A stretch of 56,802 nucleotides of DNA from a virus (lineage: Duplodnaviria > Caudoviricetes). How positions within the stretch are numbered: the first letter of the stretch is position 1; every line of letters begins with the position of its first letter. The notes under the pieces are model-generated. The model had not been told where the DNA came from. It did not search any database and was given only the letters and a program-made list of their open reading frames with translations. The stretch covers positions 1 through 56,802 of the IMG/VR virus record IMGVR_UViG_3300049053_000110; one strand, written 5' to 3'. Shown here piece by piece: positions 4,050 to 28,276 of this stretch. Both the position numbers and the translations under genes were made by a program.

Positions 4050-4907
4050 ATGGAAACAATTGAAAAAGCTGACCTGCTAGATGATGCCCCGCAGGTTATT
4101 AATGCAGACTTACGCAAGTTTAATCGCACGGAGCAAATGGTTACTAAGGCAGTAACCGAGCTCGCAAAATATACTGTCATTGTTGACATGCAAACATGCA
4201 ACGCAGCAATGGAAGCACTTAGAGAAGCAAAGGAGGTAGAGAAGGCAATTGAAAAAAAACGTGAGGAGTTGGGCAAACCTTTTTTTGATGCAAAGAAAAA
4301 AATTGATGCCAAGGCAAAGGAAATTGTTGCCAAACTTCCTGATGCTATTGTAACAACCAAACAAGCCGTTCTCGCATTTCAGCAGGCAGAAATTAAAAAG
4401 GCTTTGGAAGCCCGAAAGAAAGCCAGGGAAGAGCAATTAGCAGCGCTTGGATTTACTCAGCAACAAGGAGGTTTTGTTTATCCTCATTCATCCGTTGGGA
4501 ATGTAAGCAACTATACCATTGAACATTTTAGCGATGATCAGTGGAGCGGATTAATGACAAGCGTGGTGATGGATATAAAAGCTGCCAATGAATCAAAGAA
4601 GCTGGAATTACAAGACAAATTGGAAGATGTTGAAATGTTTGGCAGTGATGAAGAGGCGCAGGAACTAATCGACACTATTCAAAACATGGAGTTGGAAACA
4701 TCGGTTATTCAAACTACAATCGTTGCCGCTCCTGCTAAAGTAAAAGGCATTACAAAGCGGTGGGTGTTTGAGCTTGTGAATCTTAAAGAGGTTCCGGTGG
4801 AATACCTGCAGGTTAATGAAACTGCTATCCGTGAAGCAATTGCAAAAGGCACTCGCTTAATTCCAGGTATCAAAATTTTTCAACAGGAAAGTTTAAGTAT
4901 TAGATAA
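4050..4907 (+). CDS. Coiled-coil protein with Gp157/Gam-like C-terminus
   Basis: Coiled-coil N-terminus; C-terminal VPVEYLQVNETAIREAI..IPG motif. Confidence 0.55.
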   Translation: METIEKADLLDDAPQVINADLRKFNRTEQMVTKAVTELAKYTVIVDMQTCNAAMEALREAKEVEKAIEKKREELGKPFFDAKKKIDAKAKEIVAKLPDAIVTTKQAVLAFQQAEIKKALEARKKAREEQLAALGFTQQQGGFVYPHSSVGNVSNYTIEHFSDDQWSGLMTSVVMDIKAANESKKLELQDKLEDVEMFGSDEEAQELIDTIQNMELETSVIQTTIVAAPAKVKGITKRWVFELVNLKEVPVEYLQVNETAIREAIAKGTRLIPGIKIFQQESLSIR

Positions 4908-7636: not shown

Positions 7637-8772
7637 ATGGATCTGAATAAAATTCACCATATCGATGCAAGTAAAGGGGTGTATGATCTGCAACACGGTT
7701 CAATAAATTGCTGCGTATCATCCATCCCTTATTATGGCTTGCGTGATTATGGTGTGCCTAAAACTATGTGGCCGGAAATAACTTATTCTCTTTTTGGTTT
7801 TGATATTACTATTCCTGAAATGGAATGCTGCCTTGGCTTGGAAAAAACGCCAAAGGAATTTGTTGCACACATCGTTCATATCTATAGGGGCATTTGGAAT
7901 GCCTTGGCCGACGATGGCACCAACTGGTTGAATATTGGTGATAGTTATGCAGCAGCTGGCAAAAATCGAACGGAGGAACAAGCTTGTAGAAAATCAAATT
8001 TATCAGGTTCAAAAGGCACTCAGATTTCTTGTTCAAAACAGCCCAACAAAATAGTTGGTGGAGTTAAGGCAAAAGATATGTTAGGCATTCCATGGATGGT
8101 TGCTTTTGCTCTTCGTTCAGCAGGATGGTATTTAAGGCAGGATATTATTTGGCACAAACCCAATCCGATGCCCGAAAGTGTAACAGATCGTTGCACAAAA
8201 GCTCATGAATACATTTTCTTACTAACCAAAAGCAATAAATATTTCTTTGATCAGAAAGCTATCCTGCAGCCATTAGCAGATACAACTGAAATCCGTTTGG
8301 CACAAAATCTATCCGGCCAAAGGCCGGATCAGATCGAGTGCCAGGAAAAACAAATGGACCTATGAAAGCAGTAAGTCGCAAGCATACTGCAAACCCTAAT
8401 CCTAAAGGCAATCAGCAGTCGTTTCACAAAACTGGTCATTCTGGATATGTAGATAATAATGGAAGGGTTTTGGTTAACCTGGATGGCAGCAATAAAAGAA
8501 GTGTGTGGAGTGTTACCGCCAAACCTTTTTCTGAAGCTCACTTCGCAACCTATCCACCTGATTTAATTATTGATTGTATTAAAGCCGGCTGTCCTGTTAA
8601 TGGCGTTGTGCTTGATCCTTTCATGGGCGCCGGCACTACAGCATTAGTTGCTGCGAAGCTCAATAGAAATTTTATCGGCTTCGAACTTAATGCTGATTAC
8701 ATCAAAATAGCAAACAAAAGATTGAAGAAAGAATTAGGCATGTTCCATCCAGATAATACAAAAATTACGTGA
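7637..8772 (+). pseudogene. DNA N4-C/N6-A methyltransferase split by a -1 frameshift (7637-8365 and 8338-8772)
   Basis: N-half: SSIPYYGLRDY (SPPY-like), WHKPNPMPESV. C-half: HFATYP, VLDPFMGAGTT. Confidence 0.8.
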
Positions 8773-17417: not shown

Positions 17418-17861
17418 ATGCTTGTAGTCACTAACCCACTTAAACGAGAGCATGCCCTTATAGGCAAGGCACTCGAAAAAGATTCGCCGGAAATCTACGA
17501 ACGGCTGAAATCTCTTTTTTGCGACACACCGCAGGAAATAAAATTCAAAAAAGTTCCAGCTTACTTTCTTCTTTACTGCGAAGTGTACAACATAAGCGCC
17601 GATGCTAACCTGAACACCCCAGAAGATCGCCGTGTATTTGTTGGTGCGATGGTTCGCCTGTTAAGGACGGACCTGCTTAGGCCGTCACTGATCAAAGTGA
17701 GGGTGCGTTCCGGCTTCAATAAAATCCTTTACGAAACATTAGGTGTAACCGAAAGGCTGATGAATTACTACATAGGACAGGTGGCTATGTGGCTCCGTAC
17801 TGATGAAAATTTTAAAGCAAGAGTTTCCCAGGTGGTTGAAGAATTAACCAGGGAAGATTGA
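17418..17861 (+). CDS. Hypothetical protein, possible regulator
   Basis: 147-aa ORF ending 8 nt before the tRNA. Confidence 0.6.
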   Translation: MLVVTNPLKREHALIGKALEKDSPEIYERLKSLFCDTPQEIKFKKVPAYFLLYCEVYNISADANLNTPEDRRVFVGAMVRLLRTDLLRPSLIKVRVRSGFNKILYETLGVTERLMNYYIGQVAMWLRTDENFKARVSQVVEELTRED

Positions 17862-17869
17862 ATATAAAC

Positions 17870-17944
17870 CGCGGGGTGGAGGAGTGGTTCCTTGCCTCTT
17901 TGACTTGGAGGAGACCGGTAGTTCGATTCTACCCCCCGCAACCA
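17870..17944 (+). tRNA. tRNA with GAC (Val) anticodon on an initiator-type body
   Basis: Acceptor CGCGGGG/CCCCGCA with C1xA72; D-stem GAGG/CCTT; anticodon stem CCTCT/GGAGG with loop TTGACTT; T-arm GGTAG-TTCGATT-CTACC; encoded ACCA end. Confidence 0.88.
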
Positions 17945-17945
17945 G

Positions 17946-17972
17946 AAAAAGGAGCTTTAAACGGCTCTTTTT
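17946..17972 (+). terminator. Terminator after the tRNA
   Basis: AAAAGGAGC..GCTCTTTTT. Confidence 0.5.
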
Positions 17973-18134
17973 AGTTCTTTGAAATAATGGGTAAAAAGGC
18001 AAAAGAAAGCTGAAAATAGCTTTGAAAATCAATTATTTACAAAATAATTTGATTATTTGCTACTTTTTCAAAAATAGTTGTATATTTACGGTGTCATTCA
18101 ATTACATCATTTAAACACTTTAAAAACTACAATT

Positions 18135-19067
18135 ATGAAACAAGCTTCAAATTTTGCAGACTCTTTGATTGGTTCAGCAATAGAAAATGTTCAAGCGGAT
18201 GCGGTTAACGAAATGCTCGATAAATACGGACTTAATTGGAACGTGAAAAAGGAAGGGCTTTATTTGCCTGGCAATATCGAAACTTCATTTTTTGGCATTG
18301 TTCGCGAGGATACAAATAATTGCTTTCAAACTTGCAAAGGTTCTTATGTGCCTTATCAGAATAAAGAGCTTGCGGAGTTGGTTTACAGAATAGGGGAAAA
18401 AACGGGCTATGAAATTCACAAGGGCGGCATGTTCAATGGCGGTGCAAAAGTTTACATACAACTGGAAACGGGCATCGTTAATGGCATAGGAGAAAACAAG
18501 GATAGTATTAAAAAGTACGTGACGGCAATCAATTCGCATGACGGCTCAACTTCTTTACGTTGGGGGCATACAAATATTACTATTTCGTGTCTCAACACTT
18601 TCAACGCCGCATACCGTGATGTTAAGAATAGCGCCAGGCATACGCAATCTATTCAACGCATAGTTGAACAATCATTAATGGAACTGGAAGCACTCGAAAA
18701 AGTTGAAAAGTCAATTTTTGATACTTATTTCAAGCTCGCTGAAACGCCTGTTAAAAAGGTGCATATTGAAGATATTGTTTTGCAAACTATTGACGTGGAT
18801 ATTTCGGTTACTAAGGACGTTTTAGAAAAGGAATACAGCACCTATAGGCTCAATCAAATGCATGAATTACTCGCATGCATTCAAAAGGAGATGAAGCAAA
18901 AGGGTGAGACGTTATGGGGGCTATTTTCGGGCGTTACCAACTACACTACGCATAAAATGAGTGCGCCAAAAAGAGACAACGGGCGCTTAGAAAGCAAATA
19001 TGTAGGCGAAGGCTTTCGGGTTGACAATGATGTTTTTGATGTAATAACGACAAAGTTTTTAAGCTAA
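18135..19067 (+). CDS. DUF932-family protein
   Basis: LNWNV, Y.PYQN, NSHDGS, C.NT and TLWGLFSGVT.Y motifs; promoter-like TATATTTA at 18081. Confidence 0.8.
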   Translation: MKQASNFADSLIGSAIENVQADAVNEMLDKYGLNWNVKKEGLYLPGNIETSFFGIVREDTNNCFQTCKGSYVPYQNKELAELVYRIGEKTGYEIHKGGMFNGGAKVYIQLETGIVNGIGENKDSIKKYVTAINSHDGSTSLRWGHTNITISCLNTFNAAYRDVKNSARHTQSIQRIVEQSLMELEALEKVEKSIFDTYFKLAETPVKKVHIEDIVLQTIDVDISVTKDVLEKEYSTYRLNQMHELLACIQKEMKQKGETLWGLFSGVTNYTTHKMSAPKRDNGRLESKYVGEGFRVDNDVFDVITTKFLS

Positions 19068-19075
19068 AGCCAGGC

Positions 19076-19098
19076 AAGGGGCTTCGGCCCCTTCTTTT
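19076..19098 (+). terminator. Rho-independent terminator
   Basis: AAGGGGC-TTCG-GCCCCTT followed by CTTTT. Confidence 0.75.
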
Positions 19099-19132
19099 CA
19101 TCAATCATTTATTCAACTTCAAAACTCATTTT

Positions 19133-19555
19133 ATGTTTATTCTAAAATTATATGATCGCAAAGGCAGAGAGTTGAACACGGGCGACATAGTAAAAATATC
19201 GAACGGCAAGTATTTTACTTTTTGGGCAGAGGTAAAGTATCTGCAAAAAGAAAAGGTTATCACTCCGTTCCATACGTTCAGTTTCCATTCCTTCGAAAAA
19301 GTTGACAAGGTTCCTGAAAATGCTACAAAGAGCACTGAGGATCGTTACAATATTTGGTATGTGTATCAGGACGAAGCAGAGGAAGATAAAGAAGCAAATA
19401 AATTCGAACAGTATTTGATGGATTGGCGCATATGCGAGCATTTGTTAGACGATAAGTGTTTTAGGATTGCTTTAATCGAAGGGAAAAATGTCGGCACTGG
19501 TTTTCCTCCAGGTGGTCCAAACGACGAGGCTGCGATGATAGCAGCACACGGTTAA
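19133..19555 (+). CDS. Hypothetical protein with YopX-like motif
   Basis: LYDRKGRELNTGDIV. Confidence 0.55.
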   Translation: MFILKLYDRKGRELNTGDIVKISNGKYFTFWAEVKYLQKEKVITPFHTFSFHSFEKVDKVPENATKSTEDRYNIWYVYQDEAEEDKEANKFEQYLMDWRICEHLLDDKCFRIALIEGKNVGTGFPPGGPNDEAAMIAAHG

Positions 19556-19644
19556 CGGCAAAGGGAGCACGAATGCTCCCCTTACTTGTCATTCAATTGC
19601 AAACACTTAAAAGCATCTACAAATGAGGTGCAAAGGTAGATTTT

Positions 19645-20340
19645 ATGGAACTAATAATAAATTTTTCTGGCGGCAAGGATAGTTCGGCAATGCTTGCTTA
19701 TCTGTGTGAAAAATATCCAGAAATTAAAAAGCATGTTGTTTTTGCTGACACCGGATGGGAACATAAAGACGCCGAGGCCTGGTGCCGACAAATAGTTTCA
19801 TCCTTTGGATTGGAATTGCATGTTGTTCGAAATAAGAATAAGACATTGTTGACTATGGCGGAACAGCGAGGCAAGTTTCCAGGCATGCAGCAAAGACAAT
19901 GCACCAGCGATTTAAAACGCGATCCGATTGCCAGTTGGATTCGAAACAATGTAAAAGATAAATTGATCATTAATTGCTTGGGCATTCGTTCTGAAGAAAG
20001 CAGCGGGAGGAAAAAACAAAGAAAGCTAAAGCGGAATAATCGGGAAACAAATTCAATGCGCACTATTTGGGATTGGGCGCCAATTAAAGATTGGACAGAA
20101 AAACAGGTCTTGGAATATCTTGAACAAAAGGGCATACCACTGCATCCCGTGTACAAATACCTGCATCGATTTTCTTGTCGTGTGTGTATTTTCATGCAAG
20201 AGCATGAGATAAAGGCTGTAAGCGAAAATGATCCCGAGGCAATTGATATTATTTCAAACGTGGAGAGGAGAATCAATTTTCACATGACACAAAGCGGCTT
20301 TATTGATGAAATTATCAAACGTCAAGCAATCGTTGCATAA
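19645..20340 (+). CDS. PAPS-reductase-family (adenine nucleotide alpha-hydrolase) protein
   Basis: PP-loop SGGKDS, FADTGWE, CT..LK, GIR.EES..R, PI.DWT, RFSCRVC. Confidence 0.85.
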   Translation: MELIINFSGGKDSSAMLAYLCEKYPEIKKHVVFADTGWEHKDAEAWCRQIVSSFGLELHVVRNKNKTLLTMAEQRGKFPGMQQRQCTSDLKRDPIASWIRNNVKDKLIINCLGIRSEESSGRKKQRKLKRNNRETNSMRTIWDWAPIKDWTEKQVLEYLEQKGIPLHPVYKYLHRFSCRVCIFMQEHEIKAVSENDPEAIDIISNVERRINFHMTQSGFIDEIIKRQAIVA

Positions 20341-20341
20341 A

Positions 20342-20551
20342 ATGAAGAAAAGAAGAAAAAAAGGAAGTGGCGGCTACCGGCCAGGAGCCAAGAGGCCTTT
20401 AAAATACGGAGAGCCTACAGAGATTGTTCGCTTCAGTATTCCCATTTCAAAGACAGATCAAGCTAAAGAGATTATGAAAAAATGGCTAAAACAATTCGAG
20501 GCGCCAAAGGTATCAGGTAAGCCTGACGGCTCTCAACATTATTCTTTATGA
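20342..20551 (+). CDS. Small basic DNA-binding-like protein
   Basis: GGYRPGAKRP..GEPT..RFSIP (RHH-like). Confidence 0.55.
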   Translation: MKKRRKKGSGGYRPGAKRPLKYGEPTEIVRFSIPISKTDQAKEIMKKWLKQFEAPKVSGKPDGSQHYSL

Positions 20552-21252
20552 CAGTATCGAGCGAATATAAAGACAGCACGGAGCTAATGCAGAAAATGGC
20601 AGCACGGACAAATGGAACGTGCTTGCTTGCTTTCAGCACAGGTAAAGATGCTCTTTGCGCATGGGTAGAGCTTAGAAAATACTTTCACACTATTATTCCT
20701 GTTTACTATTATCTGATTCCAAAGCTTTCATTTATTGAGCGGTCGTTGTCATACTACGAGGAGTTTTTTAAAACTAAGATCATAAGGCTTCCCAACACAA
20801 ACTTGTATAAAATGCTCAATTATCAGGTTTATCAAACGCCCTCGACCATAAAAATTATTAATGCATTCGCCCTGCCAATGGTCAACAGAGAGCAATTACT
20901 AGGGTATTTAAAAGAAGATTTAGGATTAGATAAGGAATGCTTTGTTGCCATTGGAAACAGAATGTATGACAACCTTGCCAGATACAGGTCAATAACAAAG
21001 TTTGGCCCTGTTAATCAAAAGAATAAAACATTTTACCCAGTGTATGATTACAAAATAGCAGATGTTCTAAGCTCTATAAAACAAGCAGGGGTGCAATTAC
21101 CTGTGGATTACAGGCTATTTGGAAAAACGTTCGACGGCTTGGATTATCGGTTTTTAAAGCCAATAAAAGAGCAATACCCCGAAGATTTTGAAAAGATCAA
21201 ACAATTTTTCCCATTGGTTCACCTGGAAATTATGCGCTATGAGCAACTTTAA
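20548..21252 (+). CDS. Divergent PP-loop/PAPS-reductase-like protein
   Basis: LLAFSTGKDA PP-loop; LPVDY.LFGKTFDG motif. Confidence 0.65.
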   Translation: MTVSSEYKDSTELMQKMAARTNGTCLLAFSTGKDALCAWVELRKYFHTIIPVYYYLIPKLSFIERSLSYYEEFFKTKIIRLPNTNLYKMLNYQVYQTPSTIKIINAFALPMVNREQLLGYLKEDLGLDKECFVAIGNRMYDNLARYRSITKFGPVNQKNKTFYPVYDYKIADVLSSIKQAGVQLPVDYRLFGKTFDGLDYRFLKPIKEQYPEDFEKIKQFFPLVHLEIMRYEQL

Positions 21253-21646
21253 AATTAAATACGGCAGTCAGGGCGGCAAGAAAAGCATTTTCGTTAAGCA
21301 GCCAAAGACTACCAAAATAGATTACCCTGGCGAGCCAAACTTAGAGGTTGATACAGAGGTTGAGTTAAATGAACTTCAAAAGCAGTTCAGGGAAAAGGCT
21401 AAAAAAGAAGCAGAGTTAAAGGAGAAAAACACGTCTTCCGAGTATTGGTCATGTATCATTTTTGAAAACCAAGAACAGCGGGACAGTCTTTACGAGCTTT
21501 TAGGGTTACGGGAGTCAGATAATCAGTATATAAACGGCAAAAAGCTTATAAGGGCACTAGAATTGAAAATTGCAGAAATAAATGAAAAGGCTCCAGGGAA
21601 ATTCAAGTGCAATAAAGAGTTGCTGGAGCTTTCAATGAAACCATAG
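21239..21646 (+). CDS. Hypothetical protein coupled to the PP-loop gene
   Basis: ATG 21239; SEYW.CIIF...QRD motif. Confidence 0.65.
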   Translation: MSNFKIKYGSQGGKKSIFVKQPKTTKIDYPGEPNLEVDTEVELNELQKQFREKAKKEAELKEKNTSSEYWSCIIFENQEQRDSLYELLGLRESDNQYINGKKLIRALELKIAEINEKAPGKFKCNKELLELSMKP

Positions 21647-21682
21647 TATTTTTATTTTTTAACCATTAAAAATTAAAGTTGA

Positions 21683-21772
21683 GTCAGAAGAAGAATTGAT
21701 TCTACGCTACGCCAACTTTCTGGGTTGAGCGGGCTGTCTTTAACAGGCAGGAGAGGCGTTACAGGTTCTTAA
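21683..21772 (+). CDS. 29-aa Arg/Gly/Ser-rich peptide with proposed GTC start (VRRRIDSTLRQLSGLSGLSLTGRRGVTGS)
   Basis: A-rich leader, then in-frame TGA directly followed by GTC; no ATG in frame. Confidence 0.55.
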   Translation, partial: VRRRIDSTLRQLSGLSGLSLTGRRGVTGS

Positions 21773-21824
21773 TCATTAGCAAGGCTCCACCATAACCGGT
21801 GCGAGCCTTTTCCAATTTACCACC

Positions 21825-22436
21825 ATGAAAAAGAAAGCCACCAGGAAAACCCCACCTAAAGCAAAGCCAAAAAGCTCTGCCAGGGGAAAACATGTGAAAA
21901 AACCTAAGCCGAAATCCACAAAACCAAAACCTCAGCATGTGGATAACGGCAGGAACGAGAAAGGGCAATTCGTTGCGGGCAACGCCGAGGGTCACCGTTT
22001 TGAAGAGGGGCATAAAGATTCTGAAAAGTGGACTCCCGAAACAGTAATACCCGTTATGGAAAAAATGCTCAAGCATCTTACTACTGATCCCATGGCAGAA
22101 GATGAAGGTGACAGTAAACCCATCAACGTGGTTAGAGCCAACGATATAAAGCTCGCCGGAGAAATAAGGTTGATGTTCGGGGTAACAAAACAAAGGTGGG
22201 CTGAATGGATGCAAAAGTTTAAGGATCATGCCGTTATTTCCGACCTCAGTGCGCAAATTATGGAAATCCTTGAGTGCCGTTTGATGTATTCAGGCACTTC
22301 AATGGACACATTTATACTTAAGAATCACTACGATTATACGGACAAGATCGATACTACTTCAAAGGGTAAAGAAGTGGGCACAGCATCATCTTTCCTTGAC
22401 CTATTAAAAGCAGCTTCCCAACAACCGAGTCAATAA
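21825..22436 (+). CDS. terS: Terminase small subunit
   Basis: Directly upstream of TerL; RNEKGQFVAGN and FILKNHYDYTDK motifs. Confidence 0.75.
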   Translation: MKKKATRKTPPKAKPKSSARGKHVKKPKPKSTKPKPQHVDNGRNEKGQFVAGNAEGHRFEEGHKDSEKWTPETVIPVMEKMLKHLTTDPMAEDEGDSKPINVVRANDIKLAGEIRLMFGVTKQRWAEWMQKFKDHAVISDLSAQIMEILECRLMYSGTSMDTFILKNHYDYTDKIDTTSKGKEVGTASSFLDLLKAASQQPSQ

Positions 22437-24057
22437 ACAACAGGCTATACAACAATTGGCCGAATGGCGCAAACCTGGTGGATGGAAACATTTCGCAAGG
22501 ATAGTGCTTGGCGTGAACCTCGATCCTGAACAGGAAGAGATACTCGATGCCGTTCAAATGCATAGCGCTGTGTCGGTTGCTTCCGGTACCGGTAGGGGCA
22601 AAGACTTCGTGGCCGCAGTTGCGGCAATGTGTTTTTTATACCTCACTCCAAAATGGAATGAGAAAGGCGAGCTGGTAGAAAACACCAAGGTAGCCATGAC
22701 AGCACCAACAGGCAGGCAGGTTAAGAACATCATGTTTGCCGAAATCTCACGCATGTTCAACCGGGCCAAGTTCTTACCAGGCAGGCTTACTGGCAATGAT
22801 ATAAGAACAGAAGATGCAGAATGGTTCTTAACAGGCTTCAAGGCCGATGATCATAATACAGAGGCATGGACCGGCTTCCACGCAGTAAATACATTCTTTG
22901 TAGTTACCGAGGCGAGCGGTATGCCCGAACTAATCTTCAATGCCATTGAAGGAAACCTGCAAGGCAATTCACGGATATTGATTGTGTTTAACCCCAACGT
23001 TTCCACCGGCTATGCCGCAGCTTCACAAAGGTCAAAGCATTGGAGGCATTTTAGGCTCGACTCACTCACGGCGCCAAACGTGGTGTATCACAAAGAGATT
23101 GCGGCAGGTACCTACAAAGCTATTCCCGCCCAGGTGGACCACAAATGGGTAAAGGATAGGGTTGAAAAATGGTGCATGCCCATTGCCCAAAGCGATTATA
23201 ATGAAGGCAAGGGAGATTTTTATTTTGAGATTGACGGCATAAACAGGCTATGGAGGCCAAACGATTTGTTCCGCGTGAAAGTCCGGGGCATGTTCCCCGA
23301 AGTCGGCGAAGATGTGCTCGTACCGCTCCACTGGATAGAGCTTGCCAATGACAATTGGCGGGAACACATGGAACAAGGATGGTCACACAAACACAAAGCC
23401 CTTCGCCTTGGCTCTGATATCGCCGGAATGGGAACAGATTCTACTTGTCACTGCTACCGGTTTGGAAGTTTTGTAAAAGAGTTTCGTTCTATCCACTCAG
23501 GAGGCACGGCAAACCACATGCAATCGGCAGGGCATATAGTTTCTGAATTACGTGCAAACACCTCAGAAACAATGCTTGCCCAGTCGTTCATAGATACAAT
23601 TGGCGAAGGTGCCGGCGCTTACTCCCGGGTGCTGGAAGTGTTGGAAGATGATGATATACTTGAAGTAGATAACCAGGTGCACAGCGTAAAGGCGGGAGAG
23701 CGGGCAGAGTATGAAGGCTCAGAGCTTACAGACTCCACCGGCCAATACTATTTTAAAAACATGCGAGCCTTCCTTTATTGGGCAATCCGCGAATGGCTCA
23801 ACCCTGTAAACAAGCACAAGCCATGCCTTCCACCCGATGATGAACTTGCTCAGGAACTAACAGAAACAAAGTGGAAGCTACTTAGTAACGGTATGATTCA
23901 GATTGAGCCGAAGGAAGAACTTAAAGCAAGGATTTCCCGCTCACCGGACAAAGCAGATTCTCTTTCACTCACATTTTACCCATCCGAGGACATACACCGC
24001 AAGGCAAGTCTATCGGGCAATAAAAAAGAAACATCTATTTGGAACAACTTTCAATAA
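22429..24057 (+). CDS. terL: Terminase large subunit (proposed GTC start at 22429; TTG alternative at 22456)
   Basis: Walker A SGTGRGKD, VVTEASG, nuclease motifs GSDIAGMGTD and SPDKADSL. Confidence 0.9.
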   Translation, partial: VNKQQAIQQLAEWRKPGGWKHFARIVLGVNLDPEQEEILDAVQMHSAVSVASGTGRGKDFVAAVAAMCFLYLTPKWNEKGELVENTKVAMTAPTGRQVKNIMFAEISRMFNRAKFLPGRLTGNDIRTEDAEWFLTGFKADDHNTEAWTGFHAVNTFFVVTEASGMPELIFNAIEGNLQGNSRILIVFNPNVSTGYAAASQRSKHWRHFRLDSLTAPNVVYHKEIAAGTYKAIPAQVDHKWVKDRVEKWCMPIAQSDYNEGKGDFYFEIDGINRLWRPNDLFRVKVRGMFPEVGEDVLVPLHWIELANDNWREHMEQGWSHKHKALRLGSDIAGMGTDSTCHCYRFGSFVKEFRSIHSGGTANHMQSAGHIVSELRANTSETMLAQSFIDTIGEGAGAYSRVLEVLEDDDILEVDNQVHSVKAGERAEYEGSELTDSTGQYYFKNMRAFLYWAIREWLNPVNKHKPCLPPDDELAQELTETKWKLLSNGMIQIEPKEELKARISRSPDKADSLSLTFYPSEDIHRKASLSGNKKETSIWNNFQ

Positions 24058-24063
24058 ACCACC

Positions 24064-25461
24064 ATGAACAAACTCGAACTGGACCAACTCATTAAAGCAG
24101 GCGACTTTAATAAAGTAAAACAGGCGCTGGAAAACGAAAAGCCGGAAGATAACGGACTTGCTGATGCAAAAAAGCAGTACGATGTTAACGAACACGAAGT
24201 AATGAAGCGAGAGGATAAGATGATAACCACTAATTCAGGAAAAAAATTAGTGAAGCTGAATAAGATCGGCCTCGACTTCCAAGTACTTATTTCTTTCCGT
24301 CACGCAGCTATATTGTGTGCAAATAAAATACAGCTTCTCGCCACTCCGAAAGATGAAGCCGAAACTAATTACTTGCAGGTTATACAAAAGTCGTGGGATG
24401 ATAATAAGCTCGATTACAAAACCATGCAGTTGGCCGAAATGATGCTCAGCGAAACCGAGTGCGCAGAGCTATGGTATTTGGAAGATATCAAAGAAGATAA
24501 AACTTATTGGGCCAACACTCCAAATGAGGGAAGGCCATGGCGCATGCGTTCCGCTATCCTTGCATCATCAAGAGGCGACGAGCTTCTTCCATCCTATGAT
24601 GATAAAGACAACCTTATTGCTTTTGGCCGTGGCTTTAAAATAAAAGTGCAGGGAAAAGATGAGGAGCATTTTGATTTATATACCGACAAGACAATTTACA
24701 AATGCGTTGTTGGTGTTGGAGGCAAGTTGGAAGCAAAGCAAGAGAATAACCTTATTCAAAAAATACCGATTATTTATTTCAAGCAGGCAAAGACAGCATG
24801 GGCAAATGTTCAAACACTTATCAGCCGGCTTGAGTTGCTGCTATCAAAATGGGGTGACATTAACGACTATAACGGATCTCCGATATTGGTAGGTCAGGGA
24901 AAAATAAAAGGCTTGGCCGAGAAGGGAGAGGATGGTAAAGTGTTCGAGATTGAAAAAGGCGGCAAGCTCGAATACCTGTCATGGGATCACGCACCGGAAA
25001 GTATTAAGAATGAGATTGAAACGCTAATTCGTTTGATCTATGTGCTGAGCAATACACCGGACGTTTCATTTGAAAACATGAAAGGGCTTGGTGCCACTTC
25101 CGGCTTTGCACTGGAAATGATGTTTATGGATGCTCACATGAAAGCCGCAAAGACTGAGGGCACATTTGGCGAAGGAATACAGCGCCGTATCAATTTCCTG
25201 AAACACTCAATGGCTCACATCAATGTAAAGTTTGGCAAGAACACGGCGCTAAGCATTAAGCCAAAATTTGAATACTTCATGCCGAAGAACATTAGTGAAA
25301 TGATTGACATACTCACTACTGCAGTACAGGGGGGCATCATGAGTAAAGAGACAGCTGTTTCGCAAAACCCATTGGTGAAAGAACCGGCGAAAGAGCTGGA
25401 AAGAATCAAAGCCGAGCAACCCACCGATGCAGAGAAATTGAATAATGATTTAAACGATTAG
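24064..25461 (+). CDS. Portal protein (SPP1 gp6-like)
   Basis: 465 aa after TerL; IPIIYF, SGFAL and MSKETA motifs. Confidence 0.85.
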   Translation: MNKLELDQLIKAGDFNKVKQALENEKPEDNGLADAKKQYDVNEHEVMKREDKMITTNSGKKLVKLNKIGLDFQVLISFRHAAILCANKIQLLATPKDEAETNYLQVIQKSWDDNKLDYKTMQLAEMMLSETECAELWYLEDIKEDKTYWANTPNEGRPWRMRSAILASSRGDELLPSYDDKDNLIAFGRGFKIKVQGKDEEHFDLYTDKTIYKCVVGVGGKLEAKQENNLIQKIPIIYFKQAKTAWANVQTLISRLELLLSKWGDINDYNGSPILVGQGKIKGLAEKGEDGKVFEIEKGGKLEYLSWDHAPESIKNEIETLIRLIYVLSNTPDVSFENMKGLGATSGFALEMMFMDAHMKAAKTEGTFGEGIQRRINFLKHSMAHINVKFGKNTALSIKPKFEYFMPKNISEMIDILTTAVQGGIMSKETAVSQNPLVKEPAKELERIKAEQPTDAEKLNNDLND

Positions 25462-26831: not shown

Positions 26832-27236
26832 ATGCTAACAACAATTATTTGCACAACGAGCATTTTGCTCAACCTATTGCTTGTATTCGCAATCCGATAC
26901 TTGTTTAAAAACTATTATCCCAAAAAAGTAAATAATTCCGCTATGCATCTTCGTAGGGCATGTTACATGGTGCTTCAAGATGGGAGGTGGTCAGCCTACA
27001 CGGATAAGGGAGAACCCGTGCCGGGAATTAAGAAAGGGTCGGTGTGGATTTCTCAAGGCAAGGAAACTCTGAATGTTTGTTCACTTGAATTTTATGTAAA
27101 CATTTGCGGAAGTAAGGAGGAAATGTATCTCAGAATAAAACAAAGGGAAGAAAAGGAAAACGAGCGATTAAATATTACTAATCCCTTTTTACCCGGTTCT
27201 TACCAAGCAAACGAAATATCACCTAAGCAACATTGA
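26832..27236 (+). CDS. Membrane-anchored hypothetical protein
   Basis: N-terminal TM helix. Confidence 0.6.
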   Translation: MLTTIICTTSILLNLLLVFAIRYLFKNYYPKKVNNSAMHLRRACYMVLQDGRWSAYTDKGEPVPGIKKGSVWISQGKETLNVCSLEFYVNICGSKEEMYLRIKQREEKENERLNITNPFLPGSYQANEISPKQH

Positions 27237-28276
27237 TCGACTACAAAAAATATGAAGAGCGACTTATCCGCAATATCCTCAAGCAACATGAGGCTGTCCG
27301 TGCTATATACGGGGAAGCCATCAATGAAATAACTTTCACCGCAGCTAAGTACACCTATAAAGGCAAGGTGTTCGACCTCAATAAATACCCTGCACTGAAA
27401 ATAAAAGTAGATACTGCATTAAAGCAAATGCATGGTAGTATCTACTCCGTTTCTGTCAATGGTATAAAAGAGTCGTGGGATTTAGGCAACGAGAAAAATA
27501 ATGTGCTGATCGATCAACGGCTCAAAGGCCGCTCTGTTACTCCAAAGGCAAAGCAAATCCTTTACGACCCGAACACCAGTGCATTAAAATCATTCACCAA
27601 TAGAAGGCGTGACGGCCTCGGCTTAAGCGATAGGGTATGGAAAGGCCTGAAGCCATTTAACAATGAGCTGGAGCATGGCCTTGCTCTCGGTATTGGCAAA
27701 GGTCAGTCAGCAAAAGAAATGGCGAGGGAATTACAGAAGCATCTTAAAAATCCAGATGAATTATTTCGCAAGGTCCGCAATGCAAAAGGCGAACTGGAAT
27801 TATCGCAAAGGGCAAAGAACTTCCACCCTGGCCGCGGTGTGTACCGTTCATCTTATCAAAATGCTTTGCGGCTCACAGCAAGCGAAACAAATATAGCATA
27901 TAGAACGAGCGATCATGAGCGGTGGAAAGTGTCGCCAACGGTTTCAGCTATTGAAGTAAAGCTCTCGGACGCTCACCCGACGAGAGATATTTGCGATCAC
28001 TTAGTTGGTAAGTATCCAAAGGACTATAAGCATGTAGGGTTCCACACAAGGTGTTTATGTTATGCTATTCCAATCCTTACTAGCGATGCAGATTTTGACA
28101 GGCAGTTAGATGCAATCTTTAATGATGAAGAGCCGGGCAATCCAATGAGTGTAAAGAAGGTGCCAGGCAATGCGACCAAGTGGATGAAGGCGAATGCAGA
28201 GAAGTTGCAAGGATATAAATCACTTCCTTATTTTATTCGTGATAATCCGCAGTATTATGGAAAGTATTTTGATTAA
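27233..28276 (+). CDS. Minor head morphogenesis protein (SPP1 gp7/Mu gpF-like)
   Basis: RL..SETNIAY, DICD, FHTRCLC motifs. Confidence 0.8.
   Translation: MIDYKKYEERLIRNILKQHEAVRAIYGEAINEITFTAAKYTYKGKVFDLNKYPALKIKVDTALKQMHGSIYSVSVNGIKESWDLGNEKNNVLIDQRLKGRSVTPKAKQILYDPNTSALKSFTNRRRDGLGLSDRVWKGLKPFNNELEHGLALGIGKGQSAKEMARELQKHLKNPDELFRKVRNAKGELELSQRAKNFHPGRGVYRSSYQNALRLTASETNIAYRTSDHERWKVSPTVSAIEVKLSDAHPTRDICDHLVGKYPKDYKHVGFHTRCLCYAIPILTSDADFDRQLDAIFNDEEPGNPMSVKKVPGNATKWMKANAEKLQGYKSLPYFIRDNPQYYGKYFD

Follow-up and report, generated by a model that had tools for sequence, protein, structure and literature searches.

The gene for the large terminase subunit (TerL) in the IMG/VR provirus record IMGVR_UViG_3300049053_000110 probably starts at a GTC codon, position 22429, which would be read by the phage's own initiator-like transfer RNA (tRNA), probably as formyl-valine. 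The whole stretch of DNA analysed, 56,802 bases, is referred to here as the window; the record is classed as a provirus with an estimated completeness of 61%. The site was chosen for its missing start. Comparison with other phages favors a wider reading, held nearly as firmly, in which a family of phage initiator tRNAs with valine anticodons (GAC, and AAC in one lineage) would give its carriers a private start codon, with formyl-valine starts at GUC or GUU marked by a preceding GA that allows a five-base helix. The genes concerned would be TerL here and, in gut phages, a ParB-like gene and genes for small proteins rich in arginine.

The terminase frame and its candidate start codons

The features on which the argument turns lie on the + strand, which carries nearly all genes of the window:

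21825..22436, + strand: upstream open reading frame (ORF) of 203 amino acids, presumed from its position only to encode the small terminase subunit (ORF listing)
22405..22407, + strand: in-frame TAA that closes the TerL frame upstream (sequence)
22427..22431, + strand: GA followed by GTC, the proposed start site, aligning with ATG or GTG of relatives
22429..24057, + strand: TerL as proposed, 542 codons from GTC (phrog_2, E 2.5e-25)
22456..22458, + strand: TTG, the only nearby conventional start, a rival or additional start (ORF listing, public gene call)
22558..22560, + strand: first in-frame ATG, nine codons ahead of the Walker A motif

The identity of TerL as a terminase large subunit is secure. 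It comes from the PHROG profile search, and 2073 of 8000 candidates scored are homologues at E<=0.001; a Pfam search with TerL returned no family reaching E 0.01. The Walker A motif reads SGTGRGKD in the window, with S59, G60, T61, R63, G64, K65 and D66 invariant in the alignment. The frame runs unbroken across 549 codons and keeps every residue that is invariant in the family.

Translation after the closing TAA reads K Q L P N N R V N K Q Q A I Q Q L A E W R K, where V is the GTC at 22429 and L the TTG at 22456. The GTC overlaps the upstream ORF, which ends with TAA at 22434-22436, by 8 nucleotides (nt), and the TerL frame is +1 relative to the frame of that ORF. The TTG lies 19 nt downstream of the same stop and is where the public gene call for TerL (P0001) begins. 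Further in-frame GTG codons stand at 22504 and 22513, and the first ATG comes too late for a complete TerL N terminus. A preliminary description of this DNA had already pointed to the closed frame without an ATG start, the overlap of the GTC with the upstream stop and the TTG as the only nearby conventional start, and all of these coordinates hold. It had also named the upstream gene terS. The position directly upstream of TerL agrees with that name, but a family match does not accompany it, as the 203-residue ORF gave 0 Pfam and 0 PHROG profile matches. As in relatives, the TerL start is overlapped both by the FLDLLK-like stretch at the C terminus of this ORF and by its stop.

An assembly error was rejected as the cause of the missing start, since a second, independent assembly of a soil-metagenome run is identical to the window from 17800 to 22700 (0 differences; word depth 42.9), although this run may be the window's own source data.

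Start positions in related terminases

The relatives of TerL comprise 166 loci, 51-64% identical and mostly from Bacteroidota prophages. With the conserved LDxxQ motif as anchor, 165 Walker-A stretches including the window yielded 123 distinct N-terminal sequences, that is, the window and 122 relatives. Among the latter, 121 have a conventional start at least 26 codons ahead of the anchor, at the position equivalent to the GTC. Only the window and L020 are without one. In L020 (L020:10004) a single G has been lost beside the ATG (ATGGAT to ATGAT), leaving the start out of frame; this 1-nt loss may be a true frameshift or an error of sequencing.

In the window the anchor lies 30 codons from the GTC and 21 from the TTG. 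The closest counterpart is L009, which has GTG AAT AAG where the window has GTC AAT AAA; L010, L097, L102 and L144 have ATG AAT AAT at the aligned start, and GTG is also found there in, for example, L008, L012, L045, L051 and L094. The starts of the relatives usually overlap the upstream stop, by 1-26 nt, and by exactly 8 nt in 11 of them. The TTG at 22456 coincides with a hydrophobic position that is conserved and stands three residues ahead of a conserved Trp. Because the starts of the relatives align with the GTC and the TTG occupies a conserved position, the similarity extends upstream of the TTG and the GTC sits at the family's place for the start codon. As judged by this alignment, the missing start is more than chance.

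The suggestion of the preliminary description that the GTC, in its coupling position, is the real TerL start thus gains support from the homologue alignment that it had proposed. Similarity reaches upstream of the TTG, and the L009 GTG stands at the GTC position. Homologues starting at the TTG-equivalent position would have spoken for the shorter form; they do not start there.

A phage tRNA of initiator type with anticodon GAC

Two features precede the packaging genes:

17870..17944, + strand: phage-encoded initiator-type tRNA gene with anticodon GAC (ARAGORN, tRNA-Val(gac); sequence reading)
17947..17972, + strand: terminator-like hairpin with a T run behind it, immediately downstream of the tRNA (consensus scan)

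The tRNA gene is on the same strand as TerL, 4.5 kb upstream of it. Its ends are those of an initiator: no Watson-Crick pair is formed at 1:72 (C1xA72), and the acceptor stem continues with G2:C71, C3:G70 and G4:C69, followed by A73 and an encoded CCA. All four stems are intact, and the D stem contains an A11:U24-type pair (purine 11, pyrimidine 24). The anticodon loop is UUGACUU, with the anticodon GAC followed by U37 and U38, and is closed by U31.G39 and C30:G40. The anticodon is not CAU, and CAT occurs nowhere within the gene. Elongator tRNAs have a paired 1:72 and a purine at position 37, whereas this tRNA has C1xA72 and U37.

The features C1xA72, G2:C71, C3:G70, G4:C69 and A73 are listed as formylation determinants for methionyl-tRNA formyltransferase, and A35, C36 and A73 as valine identity elements, with G20 and G45 of minor weight (PMC9976931). 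Among the valine elements, the window tRNA has A35, C36, A73 and the minor G45; the minor G20 is absent.

The gene shares its first 23 bases with a phage initiator tRNA(CAU), L292, and its D-arm type is shared by six phage initiator genes (L287, L288 and L290-L293), each of which has CAU. When 80 IMG/VR tRNAs with an initiator acceptor were sampled, 79 had CAU. One IMG/VR contig (L181, a 77-nt match) has the full initiator acceptor and no CAU; its loop is TTACTCA, possibly with anticodon ACU, and the D and T arms of this tRNA-like gene are aberrant. The scan behind the terminator-like hairpin found 1 site against 0.7 expected in shuffles, so that the hairpin is weak evidence alone.

The GAC tRNA class in other phages

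A search of IMG/VR with a pattern of the loop and T arm matched at least 109 contigs. The full initiator acceptor is present in 107 of the 109 pattern matches listed, which comprise ten distinct sequences, and a metagenome scan added three further members. The CCA is not encoded in the other class members, and a pattern that included an encoded CCA had 0 matches in IMG/VR.

In an alignment of 13 members, 98.1% of cells in the stems are paired and seven pairs have changed on both sides, whereas slid controls are 41-54% paired. C1xA72 and the formylation determinants are invariant, A:U is found at 11:24 in 13 of 13, and the class keeps C30:G40 and U31.G39 in the anticodon stem. Three of the four members tested against the Rfam tRNA model (L416, L434 and L467) score 47.5-51.4 bits, above threshold; the commonest variant, L414, gave no Rfam match at E<=0.01.

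A separate set of 80 loci was chosen by a neighbouring small ORF, described below, and not by the tRNA. ARAGORN reports tRNA-Val(GAC) in 74 of these 80, and at least five of the remaining six have less than 450 nt upstream. Within this set the pairs 5:68 to 7:66 covary (GGAA/TTCC, GGGT/ACCC, GGAT/ATCC), whereas no change is seen in the loop CUUUGACUUGG, in A73 or in positions 1-4 and their partners 69-72. By these comparative measures the class tRNA is a selected RNA and not a decaying copy.

GTC-first genes that travel with the tRNA

Of 80 loci that extend 1 kb or more downstream, 77 contain a small arginine-rich ORF 403-468 nt after the tRNA. GTC is its first codon, or stands among its first codons, and no conventional start follows for 11-26 codons. 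The NMNGAG motif is present in 71 ORFs (23 distinct), and the position of the GTC is the same in 71 of 71, with a stop directly before it in nine distinct variants; in a diverged form (VRTNRS...) the GTC also comes directly after a stop, and in the loci chosen by the ORF it is present in 80 of 80. From the GTC up to the first ATG, the codons that encode A, G, P, R and N vary only synonymously, which argues that this stretch is translated. ATG is the start of the orthologues that databases list from other sources (MARR..., MPRQ...). Gene callers shorten the GTC forms to fragments of 42-53 residues; one of these, P0148, a 42-residue fragment found on 609 contigs, is named a Bacteroidaceae hypothetical protein. 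The protein family is 53-64 residues long, rich in arginine and glycine, and ends in G-L-S-G-G or G-L-S-N-G; in gut phages its gene lies in the interval from the tRNA to the terminase genes (L414-L522, L553-L698).

Some 1.3 kb downstream there is a second family of small ORFs, which has GTC or GTT as its opening codon and runs for up to 62 codons before any conventional start. No homologue of the small arginine-rich ORF was found in the window.

A tally of first codons in ORFs lacking a start had GTC at the top (51 instances, 23 distinct), with AGC and TAT close behind because the loci are related; it was not used as evidence. A start-less ORF of 114 codons was rejected, being an off-frame of a terminase gene, and an all-against-all ORF comparison of 11 phage records and the window returned mostly off-frame noise.

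A sister tRNA with anticodon AAC

Four loci, L633-L636, carry the small ORF in an ATG form and have a tRNA at the same upstream place:

L633:1867-1941: sister tRNA with U1xU72 and anticodon AAC (ATG-type loci in IMG/VR)

Its loop is UUAACUU. In these loci the ParB-like gene (L633:3378) has GTT directly after a TGA and overlaps an upstream TAA, and the orthologue in L453 starts with ATG. L633-L636 are the only ATG-type small-ORF loci found in IMG/VR; searches for this type in the GenBank phage collection, in 5 genomes and in 401 genomes belonging to one order were negative, but the query is short and of low complexity, so that these negatives carry no weight. The pairing of AAC with GTT is supporting evidence only, because it represents one lineage and because some ORFs of the second family start with GTT in sets dominated by the GAC tRNA.

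A GA context before the proposed start codon

The first GTC or GTT of class genes is preceded by GA in 29 of 29 distinct contexts, made up of the first ORF family (12 of 12), its diverged form (3 of 3) and the second family (14 of 14). One more listed context is a GTT picked too far upstream in a variant with a long open frame; the true GTC there is preceded by AGA. Among GTC codons that lie in frame inside long ORFs of these phages, GA precedes 17 of 1442 (1.2%). The TerL context in the window is CGA GTC, and GA is absent at six other early GTC codons of the window.

The mRNA sequence GAGUC is complementary to positions 34-38 of the tRNA (GACUU), counting one G.U pair. Such a pairing would explain the odd, conserved U37-U38. 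Pairing of position 37 in the initiator tRNA of E. coli with mRNA position -1 has been reported (PMC10018350). Compared with that quadruplet pairing, the helix considered here would have A(-1):U37 plus G(-2).U38, and it is suggested by conservation only.

Proposed mechanism

Because the main identity elements A35, C36 and A73 are present, host valyl-tRNA synthetase would be expected to charge the phage tRNA, and because C1xA72, G2:C71, C3:G70, G4:C69 and A73 are all in place, host formyltransferase would be expected to formylate it. Ribosomes that end the upstream gene at UAA 22434-22436 could then re-initiate a few bases back at GUC, with the formyl-valyl-tRNA presumably occupying the P site and the five-base pairing between mRNA GAGUC and G34-A35-C36-U37-U38 helping to select the site. 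To re-initiate after an upstream ORF, ribosomes require an initiator that is formylated and competent for the P site (PMC2268962), and initiator tRNAs with mutated anticodons start translation at their cognate codons in the laboratory (PMC11744186). TerL would begin (f)Val-Asn-Lys-Gln-Gln..., with an N terminus as long as that of its relatives. A possible benefit would be a private start codon that ties such genes to expression of the phage tRNA.

From the sample of 80 tRNAs, the chance of a non-CAU initiator-type tRNA in the same phage is roughly 1 in 80. The chance that its anticodon would also match the codon at the ancestral start, in the GA context, would be smaller still, though these figures are rough.

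Points against the proposal and alternative explanations

Several observations weigh against a GTC start read by the phage tRNA, for which the support is comparative rather than direct. Some concern the tRNA itself. E. coli initiators need a run of three G:C pairs at the base of the anticodon stem, and the window tRNA has U:A, C:G and U.G there. Position 37 is U. The gene scores below 18.2 bits with Rfam RF00005, whose gathering score is 29, so that no family is reached at gathering, and it is the most deviant member of its class. For the GTT starts that occur in GAC-dominated sets, third-position wobble would be needed.

Others concern the link between tRNA and gene. The TerL family of the window occurs in 0 of 5 and 0 of 21 other tRNA-bearing records, which use another terminase, and in the complete provirus record G005, read gene by gene, the putative TerL starts with ATG. 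The link at the level of the class comes from related gut-phage lineages, so that its counts are not independent events. Within the window, TerL is the sole candidate for a GTC start, no other GTC or GTT start being convincing, and no RNA runs containing the locus are listed. A single G-to-C change turns an ancestral GTG into GTC, which makes the codon match less improbable than 1 in 64.

The same G-to-C change underlies the main alternative, which we consider unlikely: the ancestral GTG became GTC and died as a start, ribosomes re-initiate at the ordinary TTG 19 nt downstream of the upstream stop, TerL is nine residues shorter, and the tRNA, with some other role, matches by coincidence. The TTG is the first conventional start and the one used by the public gene call; its context is A-rich, and it could serve as a start. 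GTG stands at the aligned position in several relatives, the first ten or so residues of TerL are poorly conserved, and some homologues, such as P0076, are called with N termini as short as the TTG form. Conventional non-ATG starts also occur elsewhere in the window, where TTG or GTG opens 16 of 75 ORFs under a first-conventional-start rule. GTG 8769 and TTG 27233 are clear examples, with a 4-nt overlap of the upstream stop in each; the latter is the only early start of 27233-28276. Set against this, the window would have the sole substituted start among 123 distinct sequences and would by coincidence also hold a tRNA of the class tied to GTC-first genes. Its GTC has the GA context of that class, rare at internal GTC codons, and the TTG would serve as a start at a conserved internal hydrophobic position.

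It is improbable that the GTC is instead read inefficiently by the host fMet initiator, keeping TerL low with no need for the phage tRNA. Streptomyces sigR offers a documented case of a natural GTC start under IF3 repression (PMC5472188), and a GTC at the ancestral start position fits such a reading too. What it leaves unexplained is a tRNA with an initiator acceptor and an exactly complementary anticodon 4.5 kb upstream, the presence of that tRNA in 74 of 80 loci with GTC-first small ORFs, and a GA that matches U37-U38 of the phage tRNA and not the ordinary initiator loop.

Remaining readings, a near-cognate start at ATA 22447, a frameshift fusion of the upstream gene with TerL, a dead TerL in a decaying prophage or an error in the consensus, together carry the least weight and are very improbable: the in-frame ATA, the +1 relation of the frames and the incomplete provirus record would suit one or another of them, but ATA initiates at 0.1-1% in E. 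coli (PMC11744186), no slippery site is seen by eye in 22408-22436, the frame is intact with all family-invariant residues, and the second assembly agrees.

Relation to known systems

To our knowledge, every known natural initiator tRNA serves AUG-type codons with the anticodon CAU. A search of the literature (full text, with most subscription journals outside coverage) found no natural non-CAU initiator tRNA and no phage GTC start described. Compared with bacterial tRNAfMet and its phage copies, the window tRNA has identical acceptor features and A11:U24. It differs from tRNAfMet in its GAC anticodon, in having C30:G40 and U31.G39 in place of the three G:C pairs, and in having U at both 37 and 38.

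Schulman's laboratory reportedly obtained initiation with valine at GUC in E. coli in vivo. Laboratory initiators with changed anticodons work on the same principle as that proposed here, and GAC is among the mutant anticodons discussed in PMC11744186. Those initiators are engineered, whereas the phage class is natural, conserved in many phages and remodelled in its anticodon arm, and has matching genes and an mRNA context. The GTC start of sigR is natural and conserved, and its gene belongs to a translationally coupled pair (PMC5472188), which resembles the TerL start proposed here. The description of sigR has it relying on the normal initiation machinery under IF3 repression and without a dedicated tRNA (PMC5472188).

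There is a further parallel in the suppressor tRNAs by which phages recode stop codons, where a phage tRNA likewise alters the decoding of the phage's own genes. Suppressor tRNAs act in elongation and on stop codons, whereas here a sense codon would gain a second meaning as a start.

If the proposal is correct, the class would provide the first initiator tRNA in nature that does not start with methionine, together with a kind of start-codon reassignment systematically missed by gene callers; a basic rule of bacterial translation would have a natural exception with a simple mechanism. Current gene calls would be wrong, for example TerL from the TTG and the small protein as the 42-residue P0148. 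A phage RNA would be required to translate packaging and other genes, possibly as a timing or safety switch in temperate phages, and the tRNA and its codon would offer a ready-made orthogonal initiation pair for engineering.

Other features of the window and related loci

The left part of the window is a recombination and replication module, the packaging and head module begins at about 21.8 kb, and the right end carries an integrase. The next gene of the packaging module after TerL is the portal protein:

24064..25461, + strand: portal protein (PF05133, E 3.2e-51; phrog_64, E 2.4e-68)

All genes of the window can be read under table 11 and need no recoding of stop codons.

The class tRNA was found in 0 of the 166 loci of TerL relatives, and tblastn of the window genes neighbouring TerL against these loci gave one match only. 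Many of the relatives have a conserved tRNA-like gene of 71 nt about 5.4 kb upstream of TerL (for example at about 4550-4880 of the 21-kb loci), for which ARAGORN gives a two-base anticodon, 'tRNA-?(Glu|Gly)(tc)', often with tRNA-Phe or tRNA-Cys adjoining. Two relatives have an initiator-type tRNA-Met(CAU) at a similar distance upstream of TerL (L031:5117-5190 and L050:4674-4746), and the anticodon stems of both are likewise without three G:C pairs.

Elsewhere in the window, ARAGORN places a 96-nt tRNA-Arg(TCG) at 2684-2779, with a long insertion after the anticodon arm; Rfam is silent there at gathering thresholds. The overlapping ORFs at 7637-8365 and 8338-8772 match consecutive parts of one DNA methyltransferase family (phrog_67, 121-252 and 254-348), which suggests a split or frameshifted methyltransferase gene. 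The head-morphogenesis-like gene at 27233-28276 has an additional match to a PHROG labelled Bxa ADP-ribosyl transferase. Two genes resembling PAPS reductase, at 19645-20340 and 20548-21252, lie between the tRNA and the terminase genes, and gut phages with the GAC tRNA class have a similar PAPS-reductase-like gene at the same place.

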